64,000 bases of DNA from Nitrospirota bacterium (GTDB taxonomy: Bacteria > Nitrospirota > UBA9217): assembly GCA_963663225.1 (NCBI GenBank), contig OY760142.1, positions 1,344,001 through 1,408,000 on the forward strand, read 5' to 3'. A program made the translations under genes and the position numbers. This document shows, piece by piece, positions 41,065-58,408 of this stretch. Each line of letters begins with the position of its first letter. Within the stretch, counting starts at the first letter, position 1. The notes under the pieces were generated by a model. It was not told the DNA's origin, searched no databases, and saw only the letters and a program-made list of their open reading frames with translations.

Positions 41065-41288
41065 CTTCTTCCATCAATGCCTCCGTAGAAACCATAAGAT
41101 TGCAATAATTTTATGCTACAATTAAATAAAGCGAAAGTATTTAATGCCGGAAATTAAGTATTTCTTAATTAGGCCTGTTCCTGATCAAGAACTACAAACT
41201 GATTGTATGCAACCCTTACCGAACACGTGCCGGAGCGGGAATATGCGGGATTTCCGCGAGGGGAGGCCATGCATCTAGTACTTTTTAC

Positions 41289-41343
41289 TTGACGGAAATC
41301 AGACGTGGGTGTATGTTAAAAACAACGGCAATAGATTGCCGTT
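41289..41343 (+). promoter_or_regulatory. sigma70 promoter of the glutamate synthase operon with a palindromic operator at the predicted start site
   Basis: TTGACG-N17-TATGTT (41289-41317), then AACGGCAAT-AG-ATTGCCGTT (41324-41343). Confidence 0.6.
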
Positions 41344-41344
41344 C

Positions 41345-41372
41345 AAAATCCCCTCACTAGAGGGGATTTTTA
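41345..41372 (+). terminator. Leader hairpin, possible attenuator
   Basis: AAAATCCCCTC-ACTA-GAGGGGATTTT, about 245 nt upstream of the first glt gene. Confidence 0.5.
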
Positions 41373-41616
41373 TCATGGTTGCCATGCTGACGGGCAACCG
41401 GTTGTCAGTTCGAGAATGCGATCCCGCCTGGCAGCAAAAATCTTAACAGCACGTGGCAAACAGCCATAGCCGGAAAAATCCAAGGACAAGGCCACATCAA
41501 AGAATCACCGTTGTCTTTAATCAACAGCAACCGTGCTCGGTTGTCTGGAGGTCAGGATTGGCCGTTTTGTCAGCATTTGAAATTTACCGGTTTAGATTTC
41601 ACTCAGGAGCAATCAT

Positions 41617-42726
41617 ATGTGCCGTTTAAGCGCAATTACAGCGAGCGACTACGTTTCTCCCATGGAAAGCATTATGGCGCTCGAAGCCATGAAGGAAGGG
41701 CACGACGGATCTGGGCTCGGCCTGATGCTTAAGGATTTGGGCGGCGCCTTCGAGGACTGCAAGGGATATCCCATCCTTTCCGCCATCTGCTCAGACAAGG
41801 GCTTACGCAACCTGAACGAGTACACGAAGGTGCACGGCTTCAGGGACATCTTTTCATGGTCTCCATCCATTAAAAACATTCCCGGCATTGAGCGGCGGGG
41901 ACACTACGTCGTCAAAGTGTATGACTACCCGGCCGCATACAAGGAAAAAACGCAGCGCGAGAAGGAAGACATGCTTTTGCAAACGAGGCTCGAACTCAGA
42001 AGCATGGGCGCGTCTGACGGATCGCTTTTTGTCTTTTCCTTCTATCCGGATGTGCTTACCCTCAAGGAAGTGGGTGACCCGCTCCAGGTTGCCGAATTCT
42101 TCAGCCTTGAAAAGTCAGGTTTGGAATCGCGAATTGTCCTGGCCCAGGGCCGGCAGAACACCAACTATGCGATCGACCTCTATGCCTGTCATCCGTTTTT
42201 TATCCAGGGCTACGCCTCCATGACAAACGGCGAGAATACGGCGTTTGTGCCGATTCGCGAGTTTCTCCTGGGCCGCGGCAACACTGGATACATGGGGTAC
42301 AATTCCGATTCAGAGGTGTTGACCCATATCCTGCACTATACGAACAGAACGCTCGGCTACCCGCTTCATTACTACAAGGATGTGATTACGCCGCTGAAAG
42401 ACACCGAGATCACACAGCGCTCCGATGCGGCGGCGCTCCGGCTCATCAAAAAATCGCTTCGGCCGCTCTGCATCGACGGGCCGAACTGCGTCATCGGATT
42501 CACCCCTGATGGCACGGTTTTTATGGTGCAGGATTCAAAAAAACTCAGGCCCGGAGCGGTAGGCTGCAAGCCGGGCAAGTATGCACTCATGTCCGAGGTC
42601 TGCGGCGTCGACAGCGTCATGCCCGACCGGGATAAATCAAATGACATTTTCCCCATGAAATACGACATGGTGATCATCGCGCCTGGTGCGCGGGAGGTTG
42701 CAGTATGGAATCAGCTCCACGGCTAG
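41617..42726 (+). CDS. Split glutamate synthase, class-II glutamine amidotransferase subunit
   Basis: N-terminal MCRL nucleophile, GRQNTN, HPFF, NGE, SDSEV, KLRP. Confidence 0.88.
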   Translation: MCRLSAITASDYVSPMESIMALEAMKEGHDGSGLGLMLKDLGGAFEDCKGYPILSAICSDKGLRNLNEYTKVHGFRDIFSWSPSIKNIPGIERRGHYVVKVYDYPAAYKEKTQREKEDMLLQTRLELRSMGASDGSLFVFSFYPDVLTLKEVGDPLQVAEFFSLEKSGLESRIVLAQGRQNTNYAIDLYACHPFFIQGYASMTNGENTAFVPIREFLLGRGNTGYMGYNSDSEVLTHILHYTNRTLGYPLHYYKDVITPLKDTEITQRSDAAALRLIKKSLRPLCIDGPNCVIGFTPDGTVFMVQDSKKLRPGAVGCKPGKYALMSEVCGVDSVMPDRDKSNDIFPMKYDMVIIAPGAREVAVWNQLHG

Positions 42727-44360
42727 ATCAAAACCATCAGCTCTCACTCAAGGAGCTTCCTTATATTGTCCGGTGGCGGGAGGACCGTTGCACCCGCTGC
42801 GGCCGGTGCACGGCCGTGTGCCCCATGAAATCCATTGAAGCCACTGTTTACACGCAGCGGGTGGTGTCTTCGGCAGGCGCAAGTCCCGATCCTACGGTAA
42901 CGCGCCGGCTGACCCACGTCGTCCGCCAGGTTACGGATATCGAACGCTACTGTATCGGCTGCGGCAGCTGCTCCCTTGTCTGCCCGACAGAAGCCATCTT
43001 TCCGGATTACAATTTCCAGCATAAACTGTATCACTATAAGAACAAAGGCGGGATTCCTTTTATGCGCGGCGGCCGGCGAAACGACCCGTCAAAGTCGACG
43101 CTCGACAAACTGAAATTTACGCGCATTTCAATGCTGACCGACCCTGCCTTGGACGCAGGAAGGCACGAATTCCGCATCAGAACGCTGCTGGGGAGAAACC
43201 TTCCCGCAGAGCAGCTTCCGCTTCACGTCGAAGGAGACAAACTCGTCTTTGCCGGATCCACCTTTATTCCCCCGGTCCGGGAAATATATCCGATTCGCAT
43301 CGGCAGCATGTCCATCGGCGCACTCTCACCGACCATGTGGGAAGGCCTCGCCATGGGCATTGCCTATCTCAATGAAGTTGAGGGAATGCCGGTTGTTATG
43401 TGCACCGGCGAGGGCGGATTGCCGCCGAGCATTCTGAAATCAAGGTACCTCAAGTATTTCATCCTGCAGATCGCCTCGGGCTATTTTGGCTGGGACGAAA
43501 TCATCCGGTCGCTTCCGGACATGATCGAAGACCCCTGCGCCATCGAGATCAAGTACGGGCAGGGAGCGAAGCCCGGCGACGGCGGACTGCTGCAGGCTTA
43601 TAAAGTTCTCGGCCTGATTGCAAAAATCCGCGGCGTTCCACAGTTCGTCGATTTGGCTTCGCCTCCGACGCACCAAACGAAGTACTCCATTGAGGAGGCG
43701 GTCGCAAAGATGATCCAGTCCATGTCCATGGCATGGGGATTCCGCGTGCCGGTCTATCCGAAAATATCAGGAACCAAAACGGCCCGGGCGGTCCTGAATA
43801 ATCTTGCCCGCAATCCGTATGCGGCGGCGCTTTGCATTGACGGTGAGGACGGCGGCACCGGCGCGGCATACAATGTTTCGATGGATAAAATGGGACATCC
43901 CATCGCTTCAAACATCCGCGACTGTTATCTGGATCTGGTAAAATCCGGAAAGCAGAACGAGCTCCCGCTTATTGCGGCAGGCGGCGTGGCCAAACGCGGG
44001 CACCTTGCGGCGAACGCAGCCGCACTTATCATGCTCGGTGCATCCGCCGTTGATGTCGGCAAGTACATCATGCAGGCGGTTGCCGACTGCTTTGGTGATG
44101 AATACAATCGCTGCAATGTCTGCAACCTCGGCAGGTGTCCGCGAGGCATCACCACGCAGGACCCGAAGCTCTATCGCAGGCTCGACCCGGACAAGGTGGC
44201 CGAGCGTGTTGTAGAGGTGTTCAAGGCGGCGGACGTTGAACTGAAAAAGATTTTTGCGCCGCTCGGCAGAAGTACGGAACTTCCCATCGGCATGTCCGAT
44301 GCTCTCGGCGTGAATGACAAGGAAATCGCCGACAGACTGCAAATTTCGTATGTGTGCTAG
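42705..44360 (+). CDS. Split glutamate synthase, FMN-binding subunit with N-terminal ferredoxin
   Basis: Two CxxCxxCxxxCP motifs, MSIGALS, TGEGG, QIASGYFG, EIKYGQGAKPGDGG, GGTGAA, C..C..G.CP.GITTQDP. Confidence 0.92.
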   Translation: MESAPRLDQNHQLSLKELPYIVRWREDRCTRCGRCTAVCPMKSIEATVYTQRVVSSAGASPDPTVTRRLTHVVRQVTDIERYCIGCGSCSLVCPTEAIFPDYNFQHKLYHYKNKGGIPFMRGGRRNDPSKSTLDKLKFTRISMLTDPALDAGRHEFRIRTLLGRNLPAEQLPLHVEGDKLVFAGSTFIPPVREIYPIRIGSMSIGALSPTMWEGLAMGIAYLNEVEGMPVVMCTGEGGLPPSILKSRYLKYFILQIASGYFGWDEIIRSLPDMIEDPCAIEIKYGQGAKPGDGGLLQAYKVLGLIAKIRGVPQFVDLASPPTHQTKYSIEEAVAKMIQSMSMAWGFRVPVYPKISGTKTARAVLNNLARNPYAAALCIDGEDGGTGAAYNVSMDKMGHPIASNIRDCYLDLVKSGKQNELPLIAAGGVAKRGHLAANAAALIMLGASAVDVGKYIMQAVADCFGDEYNRCNVCNLGRCPRGITTQDPKLYRRLDPDKVAERVVEVFKAADVELKKIFAPLGRSTELPIGMSDALGVNDKEIADRLQISYVC

Positions 44361-44390
44361 CAGCCACATAGCTATGTTAAGGTAGAACGC

Positions 44391-46718
44391 ATGATTATTC
44401 AGGGCACGATTAACGGAAAACGGGTAGCAACAAAAGACCTCGAAGAAAAAATTCAGAATGCCGTCAAGACGGGCGCTACCGAACTTACGGTCATTGCCGA
44501 CGGGCAGCACGGCATCGGCGGCCGCATTTGGCCCCGGGGATACAAAGTTTCGGTGACGATCGAAGGCACTGCAGGCCAGCGCGTCGGCAGCATGGGCATG
44601 GACGGAACGGAAATTCTGGTGCAGGGAAGCACGTCCGACGATACCGGCTGGCTCAACTGCGGTTCGACGATCACCGTGCTGGGTGATGTGGCGAACGGTG
44701 CGCACAACGCGGGCGCCCAGGGAATTCTGTACGTACAGGGCGGCGGCGGGGCCCGCTGCGATACCATGACCAAAAAGAACCCCCGGTTCCCGGATCTCCA
44801 GTCATGGTATTTTCGCGGCGTGGGAGACTCTTTTGCCGAGTTCAAGGCAGGCGGCATTGCCGTTGTCTGCGGCGTGGAACCCCGGGACCCGGAAAACATC
44901 CTCGGCTACCGCCCCTGTGTCGGCATGGTCGGTGGGACGATTTATTTTCGCGGTCCGGTCAAGGAATACAGCAAGGCAGACGTAAAGCTTGAAGAACTCA
45001 CTCCACAGGACTGGGAATGGCTCACGACGCACATGAAGCCCTATCTTCAGGCCATTGACCGCATGTCCTTCTACGAAGAGCTGACCAAAGACAGAAGCGA
45101 TTGGAAAAAGTTTATCGCATTCACGGCCGCTGAACGAGCCAGAAACAAGGGCAAGCTCAAAATGAGTTTGGCCGATTTTCGTCAGAATGTGTGGGAGGCG
45201 GAAACGGGCAAAGGCGGCATGTTCAGCGCGTATTTTACGCAAGACCGCTCTACGCTCCCGTATATTACGACAGGTGAGGACCGGCGGTGGAAGCCGGTTT
45301 GGAAAAACGACAAGTATCTCCCTCCGTGCGCCTATTCCTGTCCGTCACGCATTCCTTCTCACAAACGCGCGCAGCTGATCAGACAGGGAAGAACGGCCGA
45401 CGCTCTCGCCCTGGTGCTTCAGTACAGCCCTCTGCCGGCAACCGTGTGCGGGACCGTCTGCCCGAATCTTTGCATGACTGATTGTACGCGGGCACGGGTC
45501 GATGCACCTCTGAACATCCGGGAATACGGGGCGGCGGCATTGAACCTGAAGGCCCCGAAAAAAGAAAAAGCAACAGGACACACCATCGCTGTTATCGGCG
45601 GAGGCCCCGGCGGTCTTTCTGCTGCCTGGCAACTAGGACTCAAGGGCCATACGGTCGATCTGTACGAGGCCTCGGACAAGATCGGCGGCAAGCTTGAGAT
45701 GTGCATCCCGCGCGAGCGCCTTCCGCAGCGTATTTTGAACAAAGAGCTTTCACGGTTCGGAGAGATCGGCGTACAAGTGCATGTAAAGTCTCCGGTGACC
45801 AGAAAGCTGTTTGACAAAGTATATAAAGACCATGAAATAGTTGTTATTGCCGTGGGCGCTCATCAGGCCCGCATCATTCCCTTTCCCGGCTACGAAGACG
45901 TGGTTGCCGGCATTGAATACCTGAAGGAAGTGAATTTCGGCAAACCCCGGAATCTGAAAGGCAAGAAGGTGGTTGTGATCGGCGCGGGAAACGCGGGCAT
46001 GGACATTGCCTGCCAGGCCTGGAACCACGGCGCTGCGATGGTGACCTGCGTTGACATTCAAAAACCCGCGTCCTTCGGCGTCGAGCAGGCTATGGCGAAG
46101 AGCAAGGGAACGCAGATTGTGTACCCGAAAGCCACCCAGAAATATGATGCAAAAGCAAAGAAAATATATTTCCAGGACGGCAGCTCTCTGGATGCCGACC
46201 TGGTCGTCATCTCCATTGGAGAAAAACCGATAATCGATTTTCTGCCGCCGGGAATCCATACAGATGAACGCGGTTACATCGTCGTCAACGATCTGAACCA
46301 GACTTCCGATGTCAAGGTCTTTGCCATCGGCGACGTGACCAGGCCGGGCCTGATAACAAACTCCATTGGACAGGGCAAGGTGGCGGCCGACGTGATCAAT
46401 GCCCAGCTCATGAACTACGATTACGTGGCTGAAGAACGGCGGGCGATTCCGGTGGAGAAAGTCAAGACCCAGTACTACGAGGTCTGCCGTCTGCTCGAAA
46501 AGTTCTCGCCCAAGAAAGAAGCGGACCGCTGCATGAGCTGCGGTTCCTGCCGTGACTGCGGCATGTGCGTTGAGACGTGTTACTACGGCGCCATATCGCG
46601 CAAAACGCTTCCCAATAAATCGTTCGAATATGTCGTGGACGAGTCCAAATGCATCGGCTGCGGCTTCTGCGCAGGCATTTGTCCCTGCGGAGTGTGGGAC
46701 ATGATGGAAAACGTGTAA
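44391..46718 (+). CDS. Split glutamate synthase: GXGXG domain fused to GltD-like FAD/NAD(P) oxidoreductase and C-terminal ferredoxin
   Basis: GXGXG repeats, CVGMVGG, PC...CP, CG.VCP..C, IGGGPGG, IGAGNAGMD, two C-terminal CxxCxxCxxxC motifs. Confidence 0.9.
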   Translation: MIIQGTINGKRVATKDLEEKIQNAVKTGATELTVIADGQHGIGGRIWPRGYKVSVTIEGTAGQRVGSMGMDGTEILVQGSTSDDTGWLNCGSTITVLGDVANGAHNAGAQGILYVQGGGGARCDTMTKKNPRFPDLQSWYFRGVGDSFAEFKAGGIAVVCGVEPRDPENILGYRPCVGMVGGTIYFRGPVKEYSKADVKLEELTPQDWEWLTTHMKPYLQAIDRMSFYEELTKDRSDWKKFIAFTAAERARNKGKLKMSLADFRQNVWEAETGKGGMFSAYFTQDRSTLPYITTGEDRRWKPVWKNDKYLPPCAYSCPSRIPSHKRAQLIRQGRTADALALVLQYSPLPATVCGTVCPNLCMTDCTRARVDAPLNIREYGAAALNLKAPKKEKATGHTIAVIGGGPGGLSAAWQLGLKGHTVDLYEASDKIGGKLEMCIPRERLPQRILNKELSRFGEIGVQVHVKSPVTRKLFDKVYKDHEIVVIAVGAHQARIIPFPGYEDVVAGIEYLKEVNFGKPRNLKGKKVVVIGAGNAGMDIACQAWNHGAAMVTCVDIQKPASFGVEQAMAKSKGTQIVYPKATQKYDAKAKKIYFQDGSSLDADLVVISIGEKPIIDFLPPGIHTDERGYIVVNDLNQTSDVKVFAIGDVTRPGLITNSIGQGKVAADVINAQLMNYDYVAEERRAIPVEKVKTQYYEVCRLLEKFSPKKEADRCMSCGSCRDCGMCVETCYYGAISRKTLPNKSFEYVVDESKCIGCGFCAGICPCGVWDMMENV

Positions 46719-46816: not shown

Positions 46817-48996
46817 TTAGGGTGAGAACCGCCCGGACGCGGATGATTGTGAAGGATTGTGTGAACAGGAGTCGAGTATCTGCCGTATCTGCACCAGGAG
46901 ATCGCGGGATTCAAACGGTTTTTGAAGGAACCAGGCGACAGTATTGATGTCTTCTTTCTCCGCGACATATTTCATGTAGCCTGATATGGCCAGCATGCGT
47001 ACCTCGGGGTTAATCGCCCGCAAGCGGTGCATGAGCTCTTTCCCGTCGAGCCTCGGCATTACCATGTCCGTAATCACCAACGCCACCTCGTCCGACATTC
47101 TGTTGAACACTTCCAGACCGAGGATGGGGTCGTTGGCCGTCAGGACCTTATATCCATTTGAGGTGAGCGTCTCCTGAATTGCACTCAGGATGTCTTCTTC
47201 GTCGTCGATAACCAGGATGGTTTCCGTTCCTCTCTGCGGCACCAGCAACGGCCGTGATCCGGGTGCGGGGGCTTCGCGAAGAACAGGAAGGAGGACTTTG
47301 AATGTGGCGCCGCTGCCGACGCGGCTTTGCACCACGATATACCCTTTATGCTCCAGTACGGCGCCATAGCACATGGCAAGACCCAGCCCCGTTCCTTTTC
47401 CTCGTTCTTTGGTGGTAAAGAATGGTTCAAATATTTTTTGCACCAGGTGCTCCGGAATGCCGACTCCTGAATCCGTCACACTCATCTGAACATAGTCTCC
47501 CGGCAGGACATAGGGCGGGACATCAGGGGTATTTCCGGGGACCTGCAAAACAGCAGTTGTGAGAACGATTCTGCCTCCCTGGGGCATCGCATCCCGTGCA
47601 TTCACCACGAGATTCATAACGACCTGTTCGAGCTGGTTGAAGTCGCCTTTGACAAGAGGAAGATTTTCCGACAAGGCCAGTTCGAGAGATATGTTTTTAT
47701 CGAGAACCCGTTCCACCAGTTTGGCGGAGTCAGTTATGATGTCATTGATATTGATGGGGAGAATTTCATAATTGCTCCGACGGGCAAATCCCAAGAGCTT
47801 ATTTATCATAGCTCCTGCTTTGCGCGATACATCTTCAATGACCTGGAGGCTCCGGAGAGATTTTGCGTCCAGAGAAGGGAAAAGCCGGACAATTTCCGTA
47901 TGGCCGAGAATTGCGGTCAGAATATTGTTGAAATCATGCGCGATGCCTCCTGCAAGCACGCCGATGGATTCCATCTTCTGAGATTGAAGGAGATGAGACT
48001 GTAGTTTCCTCTTTTCCGTGAGGTCCCGATAAAAAGACTGAATCAGCAAGGTGTCTCCGATTGCCACTGCTTTTGAGCTGATTTCAAGCGGCAGAGCAGT
48101 TCCGTCTTTTTTTATCTGCACGGTTTCAAAGTTAAGCGATTCTCCGGCAAGCAGGCGGGCCATTCTTTCCTGGACGACAGAAGGCGTATTTTCGGCCAAG
48201 AGACGCCACACCGAGGTCCCTATCAATTCTTCCCTGGTGTACCCGTGCATTTCGCAGATTCTATTGTTGACATTAACGATTAAGCCGTGTTTGTCGATAA
48301 CAGAGATTCCGTCGGTTGCATTTTCAAACAGCGCCCGGAGCTGCTGCTCGGAGTTTTGGAGCTCCTGAGTCCGTTCCTGGACCATATTTTCAAGCTGATG
48401 AGAATAGGTTTCAAGCTGTTTTTTTTGCTGTTCGATGTCATATTGGAGAGAGAGCTCCCGGACATATCGCAAATGCATAATGTAGCGTAAATATATCAGT
48501 GCGAGAGAACAGTAGAGAATGAAAAAATTTGCGTTGATAAAAAAAGGCCAGTCTGTAATCGTGTCATACATCAGGATGGGGACCAGATATAAGGAGTAAA
48601 CAATAACGAGAATGAAAATACTTACATTGAGGCCGAGCGGAATAAGTCCAATGCAGAAAATCGCCGATAATATCATGCCCGCAAAGTAGGGGGAACGGTG
48701 GCCGCCAAAGTGGAAGATCATGACACTCACCATGCCCGAAACAATGACTGCTGCGAGAATGGTCAGAAAATGGTGCCGGTTCCTGCTGGCTTCTTTTCTG
48801 TTGAAAAGAAACAGTATGAAAATCAGTGTCCCGCAATAATTCTGTAAAACAGAAAACGGGCAAAGTTTTCCGGAGTTACAAAATAGTCAAGTATGCATAA
48901 ACTGAGTATGACGAGAGAGCCTAATGCTATGGCGTAATTGGACCAGTAATGGAGCAGTTTGACAATGTTGCTGCTGATATATTCGTCTTTGGTCAT
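46817..48996 (-). CDS. Multi-TM hybrid sensor histidine kinase (TM-PAS-HisKA-HATPase-REC) with a frameshift near 48830
   Basis: H-box LAGGIAHDFNN, N-box NLVVNARDAM, EPFFTTK..GKGTGLGL, REC ITDMVMP. An upstream frame from ATG 48996 (MTKDEYISS...LDYFVTPENFARFLFYRIIAG) joins the listed ORF with a 1-nt shift. Confidence 0.88.
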
Positions 48997-49051: not shown

Positions 49052-50473
49052 CTAGAGCAGGCGCTCCTTCCGTAAAATTCTCCGTGCCGTATCATGGCCC
49101 CCGTAGCAGGTTCCCGGCATGCCGAATGCGATGCTTGTCCAGTGGCCGGTCAGGTACATACCGCGGATATCCGTCGTTCTGTTGAAAACCGGATCGTAGG
49201 TCTGCGAAGGCGTTTTGTCCCATCCGAAAGAAGCCCCGTGATGGTTCAGGGTATATCGGTGCAACGTGTGAGGAGTTGCGGCATCAACATAAGCAATATG
49301 ATTTTTAAGCGGTGGCAAAAAAGCAATTACACGGTCTAAAAAATCATCGGCGATTTGTTTTTTATTCTGTTTCCAGAATTCCGCGGACTGAAAGGGAGCG
49401 CCCACAAAAACGAGAATTGTTTTCTGATCGGGCGCCACACGCAGCATAAACATGCCCGACTCCCTGAAATTGCAGTGTTGCGTCTGTATGAACATTTCAT
49501 CCAAATCATAATGAGGGAGATGCCAGGTATTTGTTCCTGGTGCCGGAAGCTCCGGAAATCCGCTTTTCAGTCCGACATATAAAATGACATTGGACGGCGA
49601 AGGCGTTAAGTGTTCCAACGAAGGGACGAGGTCCTGGCGGCCGTGAGCTTCACGGAGCAGGTTGTTGAATGTCGCGGTGATGTCCACGGCGGACACAACA
49701 TATTTTGCGTTTCGGATGGTATCATCGTCCAGGACAATGCCGGCGGCTGTTTTGTTTTTCACGAGGATTTTTTTTACCAATCTGTTATACGCAAGCGTTC
49801 CGCCGTGCTGCTGAATGATTTCAGCCAGCGCATCAGGCAGATTTTGCATCCCTCCCCTGGGATAATAGCCGCCGTCCAGAACGAATTCACTCAAAATTTT
49901 TGTGGCGCTGAAGGCGTGCATCCGGGAAGGCGGGAGTCCGCCGTTTCCGAAGACCGGCGCGGCAAGGATGCTCTTCAGTTTTTCATCGGAGAAAAAAGCG
50001 TCCAAAAGCTCCCGAAACGTTTTATCCTTCAGTTTTGTAAATTCCGACTGGCGGGATGAGGTAAGAAAATCATAAAACTTACTGAAATTACTTTTTTCAG
50101 AGGGGAAGGATTGATCAACACTGTCCTGCGTTTTCCGTGCATCGCCCCAGAAGGTAACGGTATGGTCGGGCGAGACAATGATATCGGACGGGTCATGTCT
50201 GTCAATGGTGATTTTTCTGTCCACGCCCAGTTCCGTGAAGATTTTGCGCACGTGTCCGCCCTCTCTGTAATTCCCGAATGAATGCGCTGCGGAGTCGAAC
50301 AGAAATCCCCGGCGTTTGAACGACGTGAAATATCCCCCCGGCTTGTTGTGCTGCTCCACGAGAAGGATTTTCAAACCTGCCTTTGCAAGATAGCAACCGC
50401 AGACGAGACCGCTTATGCCCGCGCCGATCACAATGACGTCATATGCGTCGTTCTCCCGATCAAGCGTTGACAT
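49052..50473 (-). CDS. Phytoene-desaturase (CrtI)/retinol-saturase-like FAD oxidoreductase
   Basis: VIVIGAGISGL, EQHNKPGG..SF.R.GF.FD, YPRGG, ATP.T..RYT.N..G..FG, YLTGHW...GMP. Confidence 0.88.
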   Translation of the reverse strand: MSTLDRENDAYDVIVIGAGISGLVCGCYLAKAGLKILLVEQHNKPGGYFTSFKRRGFLFDSAAHSFGNYREGGHVRKIFTELGVDRKITIDRHDPSDIIVSPDHTVTFWGDARKTQDSVDQSFPSEKSNFSKFYDFLTSSRQSEFTKLKDKTFRELLDAFFSDEKLKSILAAPVFGNGGLPPSRMHAFSATKILSEFVLDGGYYPRGGMQNLPDALAEIIQQHGGTLAYNRLVKKILVKNKTAAGIVLDDDTIRNAKYVVSAVDITATFNNLLREAHGRQDLVPSLEHLTPSPSNVILYVGLKSGFPELPAPGTNTWHLPHYDLDEMFIQTQHCNFRESGMFMLRVAPDQKTILVFVGAPFQSAEFWKQNKKQIADDFLDRVIAFLPPLKNHIAYVDAATPHTLHRYTLNHHGASFGWDKTPSQTYDPVFNRTTDIRGMYLTGHWTSIAFGMPGTCYGGHDTARRILRKERLL

Positions 50474-50723
50474 TTGCCAATCCCTGTTTTTGCATTTTTT
50501 TCACCACAGCTATCGCGTCCTGCACCGTAGTGATTGCCGGAACGTCCTCGTCCCGAACCGATATCCCGAATTTCTTCTCTATTGCAACGGTTATCTCGAT
50601 TGTCTTAATGGAATCAACCTCCAGATCCTGCATGATTTTTGTATTCGGTGTGATTTCCTCCACGTCAAATCCGGAAACATCCGATATTATTGCTATGACT
50701 TCTTTCTCAACATTTGTGTCCAT
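50460..50723 (-). CDS. Acyl carrier protein
   Basis: DLEVDSI phosphopantetheine Ser motif, IEKKFGI.V.DED; AAGGAG SD. Confidence 0.93.
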   Translation of the reverse strand: MDTNVEKEVIAIISDVSGFDVEEITPNTKIMQDLEVDSIKTIEITVAIEKKFGISVRDEDVPAITTVQDAIAVVKKMQKQGLANVNA

Positions 50724-50733
50724 GGCTTTCTCC

Positions 50734-51951
50734 TTATATGATGAATTTTTTTATGACCAGCGAGGCGTTATTGCCGCCGAATGCATAGGAATTATTGAGC
50801 GCGATAGTGACGGGCTGCCGTCTTGCATGGTTCGGTACGCAGTCAATATCGCACTCCGGGTCCGGTGTCTCATAGTTCATGGTGGGCGGTATGGTGTCAT
50901 GTTTTACCGTGAGGGCGCAGGCAACCGCTTCAAGGGCCGAGGCAGCGCCCATGGTATGGCCAAGCATTGATTTTATGGAACTAATGGGTATGTTTTTAGA
51001 CCGCGCTCCGAATACTTTCTTGATGGCGGCGCATTCTGCGCGGTCATTTGCAGGCGTTCCGGTGCCGTGGGCGCTGATATAATCAACCGTATCCGGAGTT
51101 ATACAAGCCTCCTGGATGGCTTTTCTCATACACGCGGCAATTCCGTCCACTGCAGCAAGCGTCATATGACTCGCGTCGCAGCTCAAACCATAGCCGAGAA
51201 TTTCCGCATAAATCGGTGCCTTTCTTCTGAGCGCACGTTCGAGGACTTCCAGCACGAGCACCGCAGCCCCTTCGCCGGGGATCATCCCTTTTCTGTTTTT
51301 ATCAAAAGGCCGGCACTGTTCCGGCGCCACGGCCGAAAACTGGTTGAAGCCGGTGTACTCGATGCGGGAAATGCCGTCGGATGCTCCTGCCAGAACGATA
51401 TCGGCTTTCTGCAATTTCAACAGATCATATCCGTATGCAATTGCGTAGTTGCCGGCCGAACATGCGGTTGAGGTCATGAAAAGCGGTCCTGTGCACTGGA
51501 AGCGCTTCGCGATTTCGGCAGGAGCTGTGTGTGGCGGCATTTGAGATAATATGCCCGGGGAGACCGGGCGGCCCTGAATAAGACAGTCATCGACGTCCTC
51601 GATAGCTTGTGCGGCACCTAATGTCGTTCCATGAGAAACAGCAACGACGGCCTGCTTCAAATCATCAGGAGAGAGCGCGGCATCCATCACCGCAAGGTCA
51701 GCCGAAGCCACTGCCATCTGTGTGGCCCTGTTCATCCGACGCACACAGTTGGCATACAGGAACTGATCAGGATTAAAGATTTTTACTTCGCCGCCGTTAT
51801 GAGTGAAATGTTTCGATGTATCAAAAGCCGTCACCGGACTGATACCGGACTTTCCCTGGAGCAGGGCTTCCCAGAACGCATCCTTGCCGATGCCGATGGA
51901 CGATATGGCTCCCAGTCCTGTAATCACAACCCGCTTATTCGTATTTAGCAC
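50734..51951 (-). CDS. Beta-ketoacyl-ACP synthase (active, FabF-like)
   Basis: Full Cys-His-His triad: STACSAG, AHGTGT, KSMLGHTMGAA. Confidence 0.93.
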   Translation of the reverse strand: MLNTNKRVVITGLGAISSIGIGKDAFWEALLQGKSGISPVTAFDTSKHFTHNGGEVKIFNPDQFLYANCVRRMNRATQMAVASADLAVMDAALSPDDLKQAVVAVSHGTTLGAAQAIEDVDDCLIQGRPVSPGILSQMPPHTAPAEIAKRFQCTGPLFMTSTACSAGNYAIAYGYDLLKLQKADIVLAGASDGISRIEYTGFNQFSAVAPEQCRPFDKNRKGMIPGEGAAVLVLEVLERALRRKAPIYAEILGYGLSCDASHMTLAAVDGIAACMRKAIQEACITPDTVDYISAHGTGTPANDRAECAAIKKVFGARSKNIPISSIKSMLGHTMGAASALEAVACALTVKHDTIPPTMNYETPDPECDIDCVPNHARRQPVTIALNNSYAFGGNNASLVIKKFII

Positions 51952-52375
51952 TGAATATCATCTCCGCTTCTGTAATTTTTTTGCCTTCCACGAAAGCTTC
52001 GCCGGATACACAGGCTCCGGTCGGCAGCGTTTTGATGTTCTGAACGCGTATCGTTATCTGATCACCGGGGACCGCAGGATGCAAAAACCGCGCTTTGGCT
52101 GAGCCGAAAAAATACAGCGGTTTTTTGCTTTCGTCCGGACGATTCGCATGCAGCGCGAAAAGAACAATGGCGGTCTGGGCCATGGCTTCCAGGATAAGCG
52201 CCCCCGGCATGACGGCTTTTTCCGGAAAATGACCCTGCATAAACGCTTCGTTCCCGGACACGTTTTTAATTGCGACCGCGTGTTTTCCCGGCTCCGCTTC
52301 CAACACCCGGTCGATCATAATAAATGGATACCGCTGGGGAATCAGTTTTTTTATTTTTTCAAAGTCAATACGCAT
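51935..52375 (-). CDS. 3-hydroxyacyl-ACP dehydratase, FabZ-like
   Basis: RYPFIMIDRV, GHFP...MPGALILEAMAQ. Confidence 0.93.
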   Translation of the reverse strand: MRIDFEKIKKLIPQRYPFIMIDRVLEAEPGKHAVAIKNVSGNEAFMQGHFPEKAVMPGALILEAMAQTAIVLFALHANRPDESKKPLYFFGSAKARFLHPAVPGDQITIRVQNIKTLPTGACVSGEAFVEGKKITEAEMIFSAKYE

Positions 52376-52378
52376 TCG

Positions 52379-53614
52379 TCACCTTGCATAGCGGCTTACG
52401 ATAACCGCAGAGTTCTGGCCGTACGGGTCCACGGCCGTAACGAGCACATTCCGGAGTTCCTTCTTGCGCGCCGTGTTCGGAACAATATCCAGATCGCACA
52501 AGATGTCTTTTTCAATATAATTGATTGTGGGAGGTATGCAGTTTTTTTGGACCGCTCCGACAGCCGCGGCCAGAGACAAGGCGCCCGAAGCCGAGCAGGA
52601 TTCTCCTATCATGGATTTTATGGAGGTTACCGGAACTGCAACAGCCTGGTTTCTGAAGATGTTTATTATGGTTGCAGCTTCCATCCGATCAAGACCGTGC
52701 GTGGAGTTCGCGCAGGCGCAGATGTAGTCAATATCGCAGGGCTGCAACGCCGCATTCTTTAAAGCCAGGGCGATTGCGGTCTGAAGTCCCTGTCCCGCGT
52801 GCGTGAAATCGCCGTTTGCCGAGGGGTCGAAAGCAGCGGCGTATCCCGTAATACGCGCAAGTGGTGTCGTGCCTTTTTGCAGGGCGTACTGCTCCTCTTC
52901 CAGCACGAGAATTGCCGCTCCTTCAGAAAGGATTGCGCCGTTTCTGCGTGCGTCAAAAGGGCAGCAAAGAGGTTGTGAACCGTTTGTGCCAGAAAGCATG
53001 CCGAGATTGAGAAGGCCGAGAAATGTTTCCTCGCACAGTTCCTCCACTCCGCCCGCCAGCACCGTGGCGGCCCTGCCCAGTTTTATAAAGTCCGCCGCGT
53101 ACGCAATCGCGTCCATGCTCGCGCAGAATCCTGTTGATATTGTCGTATTGAAGCCTTTTATTTTGAATCGGATCGACACCTGGCTGGCCGGCGAGTTTAT
53201 AACAGTATTCGGAAAATGCGACGGATTAACGGCACGCGGACCCTCGCGAAGGCCTGTCCGGTCGAATTGAGAGATGCTGTGCAGGCTCCCGTACGTTGTG
53301 CCGATTGCCACGCCCATTGCGCTTGTTGTGTTTTCAGTGATTTCGAGTTTGCCGTCGTCAATGGCCAGTTTTGCAGCGGCACAAATGAGACGGGTGCTCC
53401 TGTCGAGGTCGCGGAGCCCTTTTTTCCCGAGAAAGGAAACGGGATCGAAGTTCGGCGTCTCGCCGGCCATGCTGACGCCGAACGCACTGGTGTCGAACAG
53501 GGTTATCGGAGCAAAGCCCGAGTTGCCCAGGAAAAGGTTTTCCCAGAACAGCTCTTTTCCTATTGCGACAGGAGAGAGAATCCCGATGCCGGTTATTACG
53601 ATATTATTGCCCAT
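52379..53614 (-). CDS. Ketosynthase homolog lacking the catalytic triad (chain-length-factor-like)
   Basis: STGFCAS instead of TACS, CACANST instead of AHGTGT, KSMIGE instead of KS..GH. Confidence 0.85.
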   Translation of the reverse strand: MGNNIVITGIGILSPVAIGKELFWENLFLGNSGFAPITLFDTSAFGVSMAGETPNFDPVSFLGKKGLRDLDRSTRLICAAAKLAIDDGKLEITENTTSAMGVAIGTTYGSLHSISQFDRTGLREGPRAVNPSHFPNTVINSPASQVSIRFKIKGFNTTISTGFCASMDAIAYAADFIKLGRAATVLAGGVEELCEETFLGLLNLGMLSGTNGSQPLCCPFDARRNGAILSEGAAILVLEEEQYALQKGTTPLARITGYAAAFDPSANGDFTHAGQGLQTAIALALKNAALQPCDIDYICACANSTHGLDRMEAATIINIFRNQAVAVPVTSIKSMIGESCSASGALSLAAAVGAVQKNCIPPTINYIEKDILCDLDIVPNTARKKELRNVLVTAVDPYGQNSAVIVSRYAR

Positions 53615-53684: not shown

Positions 53685-54437
53685 TTATATTCCCAATCCG
53701 CCGTCAAGCTGCAAGGTCTGACCGGTGATGTACTGCGCCCTGTCACTGAGCAGAAATACCACCGATTCTGCAACCTCTTCAGCAGTGCCGAACCTCTGAA
53801 GAGGGATGTTTCTTAAAAAAAGCTCCTTCATTTTCGGGGCAAGGGTTGCGGTCATTTCCGTGTCGATAAAGCCGGGCGCCACAGCGTTCACTCTGACATT
53901 ATACGGTGCGACTTCCTGCGCCAAAGACTTGGTAAAACCGATCAGTCCTGCCTTTGCGGCCGCGTAGTTTGTCTGACCAGGGAGCGGATGGATGCCGCCT
54001 ACCGAGGAAATGTTCACGATGGCCCCGCTTTTTTGCTTCAAGAACGTGATGATCGAGGCGCGGGTAATGTTAAAGGCGCCGTTCAGATTGGTATCAATGA
54101 CATCATGCCAGTCTTCCGGGCTCATCATCATCAGAGACTTGTCCCTGGTGATTCCGGCATTGTTCACTAGGAAATCGAGCTTTCCGAATTCTTTTCTGAC
54201 GGATTCGGCAAGCGTCTTGGCGCCATTGAAGTCCCTTGCATCAAGCAGAACGGAAAGGACCTTTCTGCCCATACCGCGGACCTCCCGCGCAAGCGATTCC
54301 GCCGCCGCATGGTTTTTTACATACGTGAAAGCGCAATCCACGCCCCGCGCGGAAAGGGCAAGGACGACAGCGCGTCCAATGCCTCTTGTTCCGCCGGTTA
54401 CGATCGCAGTTTTCTTGAGAAAGAAATTCTTGAGCAA
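53685..54437 (-). CDS. 3-oxoacyl-ACP reductase, FabG-like
   Basis: TGGTRGIG, NNAGITRD, YAAAK, VNAVAPGFIDT. Confidence 0.93.
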   Translation of the reverse strand: MLKNFFLKKTAIVTGGTRGIGRAVVLALSARGVDCAFTYVKNHAAAESLAREVRGMGRKVLSVLLDARDFNGAKTLAESVRKEFGKLDFLVNNAGITRDKSLMMMSPEDWHDVIDTNLNGAFNITRASIITFLKQKSGAIVNISSVGGIHPLPGQTNYAAAKAGLIGFTKSLAQEVAPYNVRVNAVAPGFIDTEMTATLAPKMKELFLRNIPLQRFGTAEEVAESVVFLLSDRAQYITGQTLQLDGGLGI

Positions 54438-54551
54438 GTTTTCACTCTTGAATCACTGCTTACAGGACCTGATGAAATCCCTGTGGTCCGGATATTTATT
54501 CAAACGCACCTGTCCGATCGACTATTGTCGTGAGCTTGAATATATCCGGCA

Positions 54552-55661
54552 TCAGGTATTTTCAGAACCAGGCGCTATCGCAATGTAAAAAATAATGGAG
54601 CCGGATTCGACCCTGGTCATTGACAGCGCGGTGTCGGGTATTTCCGCAAGCCGGAACAGTCTGGCAAAGTCGGGCTCGATACGCTGTTTGAAGCCGTCCC
54701 AGTCCACAAACCAGTGGTAGATTTGGGAGCGATAACGGGCAGCATCCTTGTACGCCATGATAAGCTTCCCGTCGGGCCGCAGAAGCCGGTAGAGCGTGTT
54801 CAGGAGTTTGATAAGAAAATCGTCGGGCAGGTAATCGAAATACCCAACGCTGTAGATAATATCCTGTGGTCCGAATTCTTTTTGAGCTGTTTCAAGATCA
54901 AACATTCTGAGCGCATTATAGGTGAGCAGTTCAACCTGATCCGACAGCAGTCCTGCCGTTGAAAAACGGTCGCGGGAGAAATTGAGGGCCTCCGCATCCA
55001 GATCGACGCAGGTAAACCGGGCGCCAGAGGCCTTGATCTCGGGAGCCAATTCGAAGACTTCCCTGCACGATCCGCAGGCGACATCGAGGACTTTCGGCGA
55101 TATTCTCGCTTTCAACTCATCCCGGAGCAGCTCTCTCAGCCTTTGTATGCGCTCTCTCACACCCACGCCGAGTGCCGAGTCGAGCAGATATTTGTCCAGG
55201 TAATATCCGATGCCGTCAGACAACGGCATGTTTTTGTACGCGAGTTCGAGCGTTTCAAAATCGCCCTGCTGCCCCCGTGGCCAGACGCGGCAACGGTTGA
55301 TGCAATAACTTTTGGAAAGAATGGGGTTGGTTTTTTCGCGGAAGGTGGCTTGTGCGGCCCTGATCGCCTCTGGATCTAGTATCTGCCGTTCGAACTGAGC
55401 GCATGCTTCAAGCATTGCGTCATTTAGCACGGTGATTTCAGCAAGAAGTTCGAAACGGTCGGCATCAGGTTGGTTGCATTTTGATTCGAAAAATCTAAGT
55501 TGCTGCAGATAGTCTGCAACTTTTGAATCAAGCAAATCTGCATATGGTTTTGTTTTTTCGCGAAGAAGCTGCGATGTCGCAGCAAGCTCCCCAGATTGAT
55601 ATGTCAGTGCGTTCTGCACGTTATCCCCCTTGAACGGTATGTTTACGGGTTTATCAGGCAT
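54552..55661 (-). CDS. Class-I SAM-dependent methyltransferase, PhcB-like
   Basis: VLDVACG SAM motif, CVDLD..AL, YSVGYFDYL, LRPDG.L; upstream WPRGQQGDFETLE resembles the KPxGYxGD motif I associate with PhcB-like enzymes. Confidence 0.75.
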   Translation of the reverse strand: MPDKPVNIPFKGDNVQNALTYQSGELAATSQLLREKTKPYADLLDSKVADYLQQLRFFESKCNQPDADRFELLAEITVLNDAMLEACAQFERQILDPEAIRAAQATFREKTNPILSKSYCINRCRVWPRGQQGDFETLELAYKNMPLSDGIGYYLDKYLLDSALGVGVRERIQRLRELLRDELKARISPKVLDVACGSCREVFELAPEIKASGARFTCVDLDAEALNFSRDRFSTAGLLSDQVELLTYNALRMFDLETAQKEFGPQDIIYSVGYFDYLPDDFLIKLLNTLYRLLRPDGKLIMAYKDAARYRSQIYHWFVDWDGFKQRIEPDFARLFRLAEIPDTALSMTRVESGSIIFYIAIAPGSENT

Positions 55662-55680
55662 CCTGCCTTATTACAAACAA

Positions 55681-55709
55681 TCTTTGCGGCTTTTCGCTGA
55701 GGCCGCAGA
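55681..55709 (-). terminator. Stem-loop directly after the small peptide ORF
   Basis: Minus strand TCTGCGGCCTCAGCGAAAAGCCGCAAAGA (TGCGGC/GCCGCA stem); no long U-tract, so likely a stabiliser or leaky terminator. Confidence 0.5.
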
Positions 55710-55716
55710 TGGAAGG

Positions 55717-55815
55717 TTAGCGCGGGCCCCTGGGTGAGGGACGGATAGCGTTCTGCAAACAGCAGCAGGCAAGCTGCTTCTTCCGCTCAGCCGGCAATAC
55801 GAAGTTGCCTATCAT
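55717..55815 (-). CDS. 32-aa peptide MIGNFVLPAERKKQLACCCLQNAIRPSPRGPR (first gene of the KS/methyltransferase operon)
   Basis: Perfect extended SD TAAGGAGGTGATC ending 2 nt before the ATG; sigma70 promoter about 95 nt upstream; hairpin downstream. Confidence 0.75.
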   Translation of the reverse strand: MIGNFVLPAERKKQLACCCLQNAIRPSPRGPR

Positions 55816-55910
55816 TTGATCACCTCCTTATCCTCGAAGTCATCGTGTAGGACCGAATCTCTTTCGTTGCAAAATCTCTTGCGCAAAAAAAAGAGTGCGT
55901 GGTGGGCGGA

Positions 55911-55939
55911 AGGTTAAACCAGCGGTGCAATCGTGTCAA
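55911..55939 (-). promoter_or_regulatory. sigma70 promoter of the peptide-methyltransferase-KS operon
   Basis: Minus strand TTGACA-N17-TAACCT. Confidence 0.65.
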
Positions 55940-56209
55940 ATAAATTAAAAAAAGATGGTCAAACAAAAAATGGGCTGTGTGCATAAATAAAAAAAATTGT
56001 CGTATTATTCGAGACAAACAGAAGCGAGCATCGCAAAAAGTTGCACACCGTTTTTATTTTTTTATCAACTTTAAAAAGATGTCATGAAAAAAATCGCGAA
56101 ATGTCCATAAAGCGGATCGTGCTGCAGGGACATCCGCCGAAGAAAAAAGCTTGTTTGCGTTGTTTTGGGCGCGTTTTATATTTCCAACAAACGACTACAA
56201 AACATATTC

Positions 56210-56238
56210 TTGACTCACTTAAGCCTTTCAGATACACT
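56210..56238 (+). promoter_or_regulatory. sigma70-like promoter upstream of 56332
   Basis: TTGACT-N17-TACACT. Confidence 0.5.
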
Positions 56239-56331
56239 TGCGTATCTTTAAAATCGATGAAAACAGGGTGTATTCGCCCCTTTTCTGCTTTTTTTGCTCC
56301 AAGCAAAGCAGAAGTATACTAAGGAGAAAAT

Positions 56332-56676
56332 ATGGCCCAAATAAAAACAGGGACCAAAATCAAAGCCGTTCTGATTGGCATTCTCGTCTGCATTCTGATT
56401 GTCCTGTACAGTTACTTTGTTGCCGACACGGTGACGACGAGGATCACCGATGCGCAGATGACAAAGGTGGACGGCAGGTTCATGATAGCCACCGAGTACC
56501 GTCCTTTTGTAAATGAAGACGCCTGGTACCGGTTTAAGTTCGATTCCGGTAACATACAGAATGAGGCAATCCGGCTGAAGGGCAAAGAGGTCAGGATCAA
56601 GAAATACGGATGGCGGATAACGGTATTATCGCAGTATGAGAACGTGGTGAAGATCGAAGAGGTCCAGAAAAAGTAA
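56332..56676 (+). CDS. DUF1523-like membrane-anchored protein
   Basis: N-terminal TM; NEDAWYRFKFDSGNIQ...YGWRI..LS.Y.N. Confidence 0.7.
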   Translation: MAQIKTGTKIKAVLIGILVCILIVLYSYFVADTVTTRITDAQMTKVDGRFMIATEYRPFVNEDAWYRFKFDSGNIQNEAIRLKGKEVRIKKYGWRITVLSQYENVVKIEEVQKK

Positions 56677-56690
56677 AAAAGCCCGTAGGG

Positions 56691-56891
56691 CTACCTAGTT
56701 TTTCTGAGAAGCAGGAATGCTCCGAGGGCCGTGCAGACCCCGCCGGCAATAAGAACGATCATGGTCTTATCGGTCGGTGAACCGGTAACAAAACGCGCCA
56801 CGTGGGAAGAAAAAGCACTGTACAGATTATAACCCCAGATTAGAAGGCCGATGCCGGCAACGAGCAGTGCAACACCAATTAGCTTTTCCAT
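56691..56891 (-). CDS. DUF3185-like small membrane protein
   Basis: LIGVALLVAGIGLL.WG...RFVTGSPTDK; GGAGG SD. Confidence 0.8.
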   Translation of the reverse strand: MEKLIGVALLVAGIGLLIWGYNLYSAFSSHVARFVTGSPTDKTMIVLIAGGVCTALGAFLLLRKTR

Positions 56892-57046
56892 AAGCGTCAG
56901 TCCTCCATAACAGCCAATTGCCGCAGAGTGTAAATGCTTAGCCGGTAATTGTCAAACAAAATCAGATCGGCATACTGCCGTCATCCTTTGACTACAGACT
57001 GAGGCACCCGAAAACCAATCGCACGATCCGGAACAGGAGCAGACAC

Positions 57047-57826
57047 ATGGAGCAGGGAAAAAACGATGTTCAGAAACAAATGAGGGAACACTCGAAGCCG
57101 CTGGTGCTGATCGTCGACAGCAACATCATGAGCCAGTTTACGACCAGCATGATCCTGCAGCGGCTGGATTATTTCGTTTATCCGGTGAAGACGGCAGAAG
57201 AGGCGCTGACAGCCATAAGCATTACCTCTCCGCACGTCGTGCTTGCAGAGACCGCCCTTCCCCAGATGAGCGGACTTGCTCTTCTGCAGAGGATTAAAAA
57301 AGACAAAGGAACAAAAAACATTCCGGTTATTATCTACACAAAGGAGCAGGACCAGTCTACACGCCAGGTATACCTGCAGGCGGGATGCGAAGGATATCTG
57401 ACGTACCCGGCTGATCCCAACCACCTGTACGAAACTATCCAGCAGGCGACGGAAGTAACACCCCGCCATTTTGTCCGGCTCAACACCAGTCTGGAAGTAA
57501 CCATTGGCAAACAGGGCGCCGCGGACCCTGCAGCGGCAAGGGAACGGGTGAGCGCACTGTCCGTAGACGGCATGTACGTAAGCACGGTAAAGCCCGTGCC
57601 GTACGGCACAATACTTCCCTTCACCCTGTTTTTGGAGGATTCACCGAACGGAAGCATCGGTCTTGAAGGGAAGGTGCTCTACAGCTACAGCTATGACGGC
57701 AGGGTGGGCGCGGTAAAGCAGCCGGGTATGGGCATTAAATTTACCAACATCCTTCCCGAGGACCGGATGCTCATAAAGAACTTCATCCAGAAAAAACTGA
57801 TGGAAGGAATCGCTGTTGCCATCTGA
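57047..57826 (+). CDS. Atypical receiver domain plus PilZ-like domain protein
   Basis: REC fold (VLIVDS...VVLAETALPQMSG...IPVII); RHFVR PilZ motif; LS.DGMYV; PGMGIKF. Confidence 0.85.
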   Translation: MEQGKNDVQKQMREHSKPLVLIVDSNIMSQFTTSMILQRLDYFVYPVKTAEEALTAISITSPHVVLAETALPQMSGLALLQRIKKDKGTKNIPVIIYTKEQDQSTRQVYLQAGCEGYLTYPADPNHLYETIQQATEVTPRHFVRLNTSLEVTIGKQGAADPAAARERVSALSVDGMYVSTVKPVPYGTILPFTLFLEDSPNGSIGLEGKVLYSYSYDGRVGAVKQPGMGIKFTNILPEDRMLIKNFIQKKLMEGIAVAI

Positions 57827-57865
57827 TGCCCTTTTGTTTAACTCCGCTTTTCCCTCCCTCCCGTC

Positions 57866-58408
57866 TTAAGGAGAACCGACGCCCGAAAAATCACCGCCTC
57901 CAGAACTGTACACGGACAGCCACACCGAAGGATCAAGCTGCATATGCAGGGTAACGGTATTGCCTTGCAACGAATACCACGACTGCAGGACCTCTGGAAT
58001 CCCGAATTCCCACGGCCGGTACAGAGGTTTTAATTCGTAGCCGATGGTTTTGCCGGCGTGATCAGGAATTTGTCGGAGCACCGTATTCCAGACCGTGTGC
58101 GCACTGCAATTAATAAAGGTGTTGGCCTCTTCCAGCGCCTGAGGACCCGGGAGCCCTTTTTTTATTTGATACATATTGTCCAGCGCATACACATCAAAGG
58201 CATAGCCGCTTTTTTCATCTGCCAGAACAGCCATATTTTCAATATCTCCGGACGATCTGCAGCCGTACAGTATCAGGGTGTACGTCGCATTGACCTCCGC
58301 AGGATCGGCTGCCTTTGGACGTAATTGTGTCCCTGCCATGCATGCCTGCATGGCGAGAGCCAGAACAAGGCAAATGCCGAATACGAGCATATGTTTTGTT
58401 TTTTTCAT
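57866..58408 (-). CDS. Hypothetical lipoprotein
   Basis: Basic N-terminus, hydrophobic core, MQAC lipobox. Confidence 0.7.
   Translation of the reverse strand: MKKTKHMLVFGICLVLALAMQACMAGTQLRPKAADPAEVNATYTLILYGCRSSGDIENMAVLADEKSGYAFDVYALDNMYQIKKGLPGPQALEEANTFINCSAHTVWNTVLRQIPDHAGKTIGYELKPLYRPWEFGIPEVLQSWYSLQGNTVTLHMQLDPSVWLSVYSSGGGDFSGVGSP

Follow-up and report, generated by a model that had tools for sequence, protein, structure and literature searches.

A short leader reading frame with a RAPP-like motif and an extended Shine-Dalgarno sequence ahead of a lipid operon in Nitrospirota

To our knowledge, annotations seldom include leader open reading frames (ORFs), and how uncultured Nitrospirota regulate their genes is almost wholly uncharted. 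Several kinds of leader are well described elsewhere. TnaC and SpeFL are short arrest leaders that sense metabolites and ErmCL is a leader that senses drugs; all are cytosolic and between 19 and 34 residues in length. The leaders trpL, hisL and pheL are attenuators of amino-acid biosynthesis, while the STAB-SD of cry3A and the stalled ermC leader act as 5′ stabilisers of mRNA by holding a ribosome. A further class is formed by the RAPP-like arrest peptides, among them ApdA, ApdP, ApcA, SecM and CruR. The arrest cores described for this class are RAPP, RGPP, RAPG, the RAGP of SecM and RxPP (where x is G, A, S or P), and their Arg is reported to be irreplaceable (PMC12992588). Such cores block peptide-bond formation with a Pro-tRNA in the A site, and an enrichment of these motifs close to the C-terminus is reported for small ORFs that precede a variety of genes (PMC12992588, PMC10951233). 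According to the first of these accounts, most of the known members have a signal or membrane segment through which the arrest is released (PMC12992588).

Here we describe a 32-codon leader ORF from the genome of a Nitrospirota bacterium (G000), identified within a 64,000-nucleotide stretch of DNA (the whole of the sequence that was analysed, hereafter ‘the window’). Judging from the sequence, we assign a probability of about one half to the reading that this is a translated, cis-acting leader ORF whose RAPP-like pausing motif controls the lipid operon behind it, and that it is not the gene for a product.

The leader reading frame and its Shine-Dalgarno sequence

The leader ORF (32 codons and a stop) occupies positions 55717..55815 of the minus strand, with its ATG at 55815..55813 and its TAA at 55719..55717, as defined by translation and by homologues at the equivalent place in relatives. 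A first-pass annotation of the window had described a 32-residue peptide, preceded by a Shine-Dalgarno (SD) sequence and a promoter and followed by a stem-loop; our minus-strand translation is identical to that peptide, and every element that it listed is present on this strand. The peptide matches no protein family in a family-profile scan, and direct inspection of the 32-residue translation revealed no hydrophobic stretch of the length of a signal or membrane segment. When 15 leader peptides were compared by tblastn against the G000 genome, the sole hit was the locus itself (the next best match had E = 0.11), and the paralogue search that had been proposed earlier therefore yielded nothing in this genome beyond the self-hit.

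Taken alone, one short open ORF is not beyond chance: of 26 alternative frames over the ORF span, taken from the 13 relatives whose start is canonical, 10 are likewise open. The leader ORF is more than a chance occurrence because of its conservation among relatives, as described below.

The ORF is preceded by an extended SD sequence, AAGGAGGTGATC (55818..55829, minus strand), all 12 of whose bases are complementary to the 3′ tail of the organism's own 16S rRNA. The 12-mer stands 2 nt ahead of the ATG, with its GGAGG core 7 nt from that codon. (The 16S gene was confirmed by Rfam model RF00177, positions 1–1533, and the last bases of the gene were read directly.) Within the window AAGGAGGTGATC is a single match, even with one mismatch allowed. 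Exactly two copies exist on both strands of the 3,255,001-bp genome, this one and a second that lies opposite the 16S rRNA gene, as the complement of its 3′ end; the description of this element as the strongest SD in the window thus holds for the genome as a whole.

We then scanned 64 genomes of the family for the 12-mer followed by 1–5 nt and an ATG. The pattern was present in 15 of them, at most once in each, and a reversed control gave 0 matches; for any particular gene, such an SD is thus very rare. Four of the 15 (G000, G004, G036 and G022, representing three genera) are the locus upstream of the methyltransferase gene that heads the lipid operon, and the remaining 11 stand before unrelated ordinary genes. 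Reuse of the 12-mer at the methyltransferase locus in three genera is therefore not due to chance. The SD sequences of the homologous ORFs match the 16S tail over 9–14 nt, or over 12–13 nt with one central mismatch. G004, G036 and G022 have the full 12-mer, and versions of 9–10 nt are found in relatives from other lineages.

The same perfect 12-nt SD is also found before a homologous 339-residue membrane protein in two other genera (L034 in G018 and L036 in G009, position 1501–1519), and in further genomes before a small cytochrome-c-like protein, an antitoxin-like protein, a DUF1328-like peptide and others.

One further idea, that the SD is hidden by an upstream anti-SD resembling the 16S tail, in the manner of a thermometer or riboregulator, was rejected as a general feature by a shuffle control. 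When the upstream 60 nt were shuffled, predicted SD accessibility was equal to or below the native value in most shuffles. Of the 14 loci, just 2 had a native accessibility clearly lower than that of the shuffles, with a fraction of 0.03 at each; the corresponding fraction for G000 was 0.72.

Three sequencing runs (X1, X2 and X7) provided contigs only and are flagged as probably DNA. A 193-nt contig from one of these, the wastewater run X2, covers positions 55648–55840 with 7 differences and so holds a closely similar version of the leader ORF, which indicates that strains of the window's genus are present in that run.

Distribution and conservation among relatives

Homologues of the methyltransferase were collected from 61 related genomes (27 of which gave a match), 55 species-representative loci, 34 metagenome-contig loci and five further genomes, all told yielding 85 distinct upstream regions of at least 120 nt from Nitrospirota (Thermodesulfovibrionia-type MAGs). 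A look upstream of homologous methyltransferases had been suggested in the first-pass annotation as a way of checking the ORF, and comparable small ORFs are indeed found there: ORFs of 30–39 codons, with an ATG or TTG at a proper distance from an SD, occupy the same place at 13 of the 85 distinct loci. Recognisable but decayed remnants are present at 5 further loci. Two of these (L053 and L111) have ATA in place of ATG, one (L115) has no ATG, and in the other two (L113 and L087) the frame is broken; in all five the SD persists with 10–12 nt. No recognisable ORF was detected at 67 of the 85 loci, and the operon therefore works without it. Loss of the start codon or of the frame extends to several lineages in which the head of the operon is intact.

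At L138/L139 (G084:C12:128473-129526), the methyltransferase homologue is interrupted (a split match with three in-frame stops) and the leader has no ATG, lesions that suggest a joint decay of the operon head and the leader in G084.

A maximum-likelihood tree of the methyltransferases, built by a quick method, groups 16 rows that bear an ORF or a remnant within a single 29-row clade with a support of 99, and puts a further carrier, G022, in a separate clade. The group statistics for this tree counted L046, L047, L053, L087, L102 and L115 as having none, despite the ORF or remnant that they bear, and hence understate the clustering. Rows L046 and L047 are the same genomes as L002 and L003, and the tree left out L080 (a match of fewer than 300 residues) and L048 (a duplicate of L102). 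The distribution across the tree leads us to conclude that the element is old in one clade, has been repeatedly eroded, and is absent from most other clusters.

Entropies computed on alignments anchored at the peptide motif are circular, being anchored on an amino-acid pattern, and we used a nucleotide-only scan instead. In a comparison with seven other lineage representatives, the best conserved 12-nt window corresponds to codons 25–28, Arg-Pro-Ser-Pro (55732..55743, minus strand), a RAPP-like sequence that is the sole deeply conserved block in the peptide. Its best matches are in frame (at an offset of 0, −3 or −6) in 6 of the 7 lineages. By hand count, the mismatches in those six are distributed 6/2/16 over codon positions 1/2/3, and the observed identity was reached by none of 300 shuffles. 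Variation that is in frame and biased toward third positions implies that these codons are translated and are selected as peptide. Together with the extended SD and the spacing of the start, this block makes up the conserved part of the element, and the ORF, its spacing and its length have been retained across deeply diverged relatives.

Across lineages the block takes the form Arg-x-(Ser/Pro)-Pro and occupies residues 23–28, at a fixed distance from the start. It reads RAPP in L107 and L118, RPPP in L080 and L048, RASP in L106, RGSP in L017, RPSP in G002 and RASL in L004. The window and the six in-frame lineages (7 of 8 representatives) all have Arg as the first residue of the core. In L055, L101 and L114, sister lineages of the one with RASL, the Arg has been lost (CTSL), the ORF is kept, and the SD core contains a mismatch. 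The window's own core, RPSP, is neither an RxPP sequence nor the RAGP of SecM, and is not among the arrest cores that have been tested.

The remainder of the peptide behaves differently from this block. Leader peptides from different lineages can barely be aligned, and no codon periodicity was observed between lineages over codons 2–15 (0.59/0.55/0.57). The run of three Cys residues at codons 17–19 (55759..55767, minus strand) occurs only in G000 and in the 95%-identical G004, and is absent from G002 and from all other lineages; a Cys motif conserved among homologous leaders, for which the first-pass annotation had recommended a search, thus reduces to these two genomes. The leader ORFs of G000 and G004 differ at 6 of 99 bases, 4 of the changes being nonsynonymous and 2 synonymous. 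In G002 the SD, the ATG and the frame are kept, with one 3-nt deletion and a stop that comes 3 nt earlier, and most of the peptide is different. Two indels separate the leader ORFs of close relatives, and both are of 3 nt. On these comparisons, substitutions between the ORFs of close relatives look nearly neutral.

These observations bear on three explanations that do without a regulatory peptide. The first is that only translation, or 30S binding at the extended SD, matters, such that the element loads ribosomes or stabilises the message and the sequence of the peptide is irrelevant. Precedents exist in the STAB-SD and the stalled ermC leader, with which our locus shares an SD of unusually long 16S complementarity, placed close to the 5′ end of a long mRNA in an organism that has RNase J; it differs from them in the start codon and 32-codon ORF that follow the SD, and stabilisation would here be putative. 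The SD is the best conserved feature of the element, persisting at 10–12 nt even where the ATG or the frame has gone, and the near-neutral substitutions between close relatives agree with a peptide of no consequence. Such an element, however, would not be expected to show in-frame, third-position-biased conservation of codons 25–28, or an ORF length that stays within 30–39 codons. We regard this explanation as unlikely, while giving it real weight.

The second is that the ORF has no current function and is a fortuitous or decaying frame behind a strong SD. The 10 of 26 alternative frames that are open, the decay in several lineages and the patchy distribution would all be explained in this way, but the retention of a rare 12-mer in three genera, a motif that is in frame, and indels of 3 nt would not, and we consider it improbable.

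The third is that the ORF encodes a small trans-acting protein that serves the lipid enzymes, for instance as a chaperone or as an accessory subunit, the latter having been offered among the possibilities in the first-pass annotation. Translation of a conserved motif from an ORF that always comes first in the operon would fit such a protein. Set against this are the lack of any family match or paralogue, the conservation of only about 4 of its 30–39 residues, and its loss or decay in most clusters, even in some whose methyltransferase is intact. An accessory subunit is in particular hard to reconcile with near-neutral substitutions and with loss of the start or frame in lineages whose operon head is intact, and we judge a trans-acting product quite improbable.

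The operon and the sequences around the leader

The first enzyme gene of the operon encodes a SAM-dependent methyltransferase of 369 codons (54552..55661), recognised by its Pfam methyltransferase domains. Behind it, on the same (minus) strand, profile scans identified FabG (53685..54437), a ketosynthase (52379..53614), FabZ (51935..52375), FabF (50734..51951), an ACP (50460..50723) and a CrtI-family FAD oxidoreductase (49052..50473). We conclude that this is a type II fatty-acid-synthase-like lipid operon. Clusters that combine such a synthase (FASII) with phytoene-desaturase-like proteins have been proposed, but not shown, to provide an anaerobic route to polyunsaturated lipids (PMC2649909).

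Inspection of the methyltransferase ORF revealed a GTG at 55619, 14 codons into the frame, with a strong SD of its own 5 nt upstream. This codon aligns with the N-termini (Met-Gln-Asn/Asp...) and the SDs of other lineages, and a strong SD dedicated to the methyltransferase is present in most lineages. The real start may thus be GTG 55619 and not ATG 55661, in which case the spacer behind the leader ORF would measure 97 nt instead of 55 nt and would resemble that of other lineages. The predicted fold places ATG 55661 and the purine-rich bases before it in a stem of 5 bp with a 3-nt loop (approximately 55656–55668, minus strand), which is identical in G004 and has one loop base changed in G002.

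Several potential regulatory genes lie nearby. A hybrid histidine kinase with PAS, HisKA, HATPase and receiver domains (46817–48733, minus strand) follows directly after the operon on the same strand, and a receiver-PilZ protein (57047–57826, plus strand) is encoded divergently upstream of it; either could be a regulator of the operon. An NrpR-like protein (HTH_12 and NRD1_2 domains), belonging to a regulator family known mostly from archaea, adjoins glutamate-synthase-type genes at 40075–46718 on the plus strand.

A short ORF that opens a biosynthetic operon, has a strong SD and is followed by a hairpin also brings to mind a precursor of a RiPP or of a hybrid lipopeptide modified at Cys, another option of the first-pass annotation. 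The locus resembles RiPP precursors in that position and departs from them in lacking a maturase, a conserved core and conserved Cys residues. Scans with Pfam and NCBIfam found no maturase-type, protease or exporter domain of RiPP clusters in the 7 operon proteins and 10 neighbours, which bears out, for these 17 proteins, the earlier remark that no classical maturase is present. The methyltransferase itself scores 23 bits against the model for daptide methyltransferases, far below the cut-off of 175. With a Cys run private to G000 and G004, and an ORF that is absent or decayed in most homologous clusters, a precursor of this kind is very improbable. Taken together, the private Cys run, the lack of a nearby maturase and the lack of a paralogue make a RiPP precursor, a Cys-sensing attenuator (considered below) and an accessory subunit all unlikely.

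Upstream of the leader ORF lies a putative σ70-type promoter, with a −35 hexamer TTGACA (55934..55939, minus strand), in a block that is invariant in three same-genus genomes, and, 17 nt further on, a −10 hexamer TAACCT (55911..55916). The hexamers and the spacing are as first annotated, but the −10 element agrees with TATAAT at only 3 of 6 positions and the promoter is absent from the list returned by a consensus scan. G002 has one C-to-T change within the −10 hexamer. By eye, an analogous TTGACA-N17-TAnnnT arrangement can be seen ahead of the methyltransferase in other lineages. From the position of the promoter, the 5′ leader between the presumed transcription start and the SD would extend over approximately 55830..55904.

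A segment running from about 40 nt upstream of the −35 element through the −10 region (55917–55975, minus strand) is almost invariant in three same-genus genomes, and is better conserved among them than the leader ORF. The corresponding region of other lineages contains two copies of a T-rich repeat of the type TTTGGTTT. The conserved block, or the T-rich repeat, may represent the binding site of a regulator.

Downstream of the ORF, a stem-loop with a 6-bp stem and an 11-nt loop (55685..55707, minus strand) begins 9 nt after the TAA; the stem-loop noted in the first-pass annotation is therefore present, at a distance of 9 nt and not 7. Comparative support for the predicted hairpins amounts to one compensatory change from G:C to A:U and one change to G:U in the stem of this stem-loop, among three genomes. 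It is not followed by a U tract, and no minus-strand terminator was called there by the scan. Predicted folds for G000 are no more stable than shuffled sequence, either for the 60 nt after the stop (z = −0.28), for the last 45 nt of the ORF (z = −0.10) or for the whole leader (z = −0.52). Over all loci folded, z ranges from −1.88 to +0.91 for the post-stop 60 nt and from −1.58 to +1.10 for the last 45 nt of the ORF. An Rfam search of positions 54000–58000 gave no match at or above a family's gathering score; the sole match there with E up to 10 scores 17 bits, far below the 59.5 required, and lies on the opposite strand, within the methyltransferase gene.

These results weigh on the possibility of a classical attenuator that senses the charging of Cys-tRNA. 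Three consecutive Cys codons in a leader ORF, with a stem-loop behind, are reminiscent of such a device, and the arrangement of a leader ORF behind a promoter and before a stem-loop is shared with trpL, hisL and pheL. Unlike those leaders, the locus has no conserved regulatory codon run, no U-tract terminator and no supported alternative pairings: the Cys run is missing from G002 and every other lineage, no terminator was called, and the operon has no link to cysteine metabolism. A classical Cys attenuator is scarcely credible here.

A pausing leader as the proposed reading

We believe that the observations are best accommodated by a pausing leader. Pairing of the SD over 12 nt with the organism's own 16S tail should load ribosomes onto the leader very efficiently. 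The Arg-x-(Ser/Pro)-Pro block would then serve as a RAPP-like site of pausing or arrest with Pro28 in the A site, and throughout the pause the entire chain of 27 residues should lie inside the tunnel. One or more ribosomes would consequently be parked for long on the 5′ leader, and the parked ribosome might, more tentatively, set the output of the operon. It could do so through refolding of the approximately 55–97 nt between the ORF and the methyltransferase start, including the stem-loop at 55707..55685; on commonly assumed footprint dimensions, the front edge of a ribosome at the leader's stop codon should reach the first bases of the stem. As a second option, it could shield the long mRNA from decay that depends on the 5′ end. 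RNase J, recognised at 620 bits (cut-off 400), is encoded in the genome alongside an RNase E/G, and 5′-end protection would therefore be a meaningful function in this organism. The first-pass annotation had named a Cys-sensing or stalling leader in control of the operon as one of its options, and of this the translated, stalling-type leader is now the best-supported reading, whereas Cys sensing is not upheld, with a run found only in G000 and G004.

As with the RAPP-like arrest peptides, the element is a small ORF directly upstream of the gene that it would regulate, and it carries an Arg-x-x-Pro core, the Arg of which is invariant in that class, a few residues before the C-terminus; some of the relatives described here carry exactly RAPP or RPPP. 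Residues N-terminal to the core are poorly conserved in this family, as they are reported to be in the RAPP-like class (PMC12992588). The locus is unlike that class in the window's RPSP core, in a length of only 32 residues, in the lipid enzymes that it would regulate, in its extreme SD and in that its arrest is deduced from sequence. The window peptide has no signal or membrane segment, so release by a pulling force is not expected. In this respect it is closer to TnaC, SpeFL and ErmCL, likewise short cytosolic leaders that lie wholly in the exit tunnel when stalled and control the operon behind; it differs from them in that no Rho site or hairpin masking the second SD is demonstrable and no sequence similarity exists. 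Since the nascent chain would stay inside the tunnel throughout, a small molecule or the state of translation would be needed to release or enhance the stall, as for TnaC or SpeFL, and a pulling force would not serve.

Several findings run against a pausing leader. The core in the window is RPSP, one lineage has RASL, the Arg has been lost in the CTSL lineages, and the peptide lacks the signal or membrane segment found in most of the known RAPP-like class. Substitutions between close relatives are near neutral, and codons 2–15 show no periodicity. No RNA structure that might connect a paused ribosome with the gene behind it is supported: the hairpins are no better than those of shuffled sequences, the anti-SD model failed its control, no terminator was called, the methyltransferase has its own SD, and the ORF is mostly absent from related loci.

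A more specific version of the proposal is that leaders of this type form a family of cytosolic RAPP-like arrest peptides, of about 32 residues and initiated from a perfect SD, that park ribosomes to switch an anaerobic FASII/CrtI-like operon in Thermodesulfovibrionia-type Nitrospirota. We put this forward as a speculative extension that is more probably wrong than right by a wide measure.

Leader ORFs and RAPP-like arrest peptides are both kinds of element that are already known. New here would be a very short and cytosolic example, starting from a perfect complement of the anti-SD, ahead of lipid genes, in a phylum without genetics. Among the papers listed by our literature search, none describes a leader ORF before such clusters; the RAPP-bearing relatives may already figure among the RAPP- and RGPP-coding upstream ORFs tabulated in the source data of PMC12992588. 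One practical consequence is the removal of a tempting but unsupported annotation of the locus as a ‘lipopeptide RiPP’.

If the pausing-leader reading is true, RAPP-like pausing motifs also serve in very short leaders that are not secreted, and an extreme Shine-Dalgarno sequence forms part of the regulatory device. Were the leader in addition a cytosolic RAPP-like switch as outlined above, RAPP-type peptides would gain a new sensory class, and membrane-lipid genes a new form of regulation. A pausing leader at this position would also help to tell when these bacteria turn on a lipid pathway of the FASII/phytoene-desaturase-like type that is still little understood.
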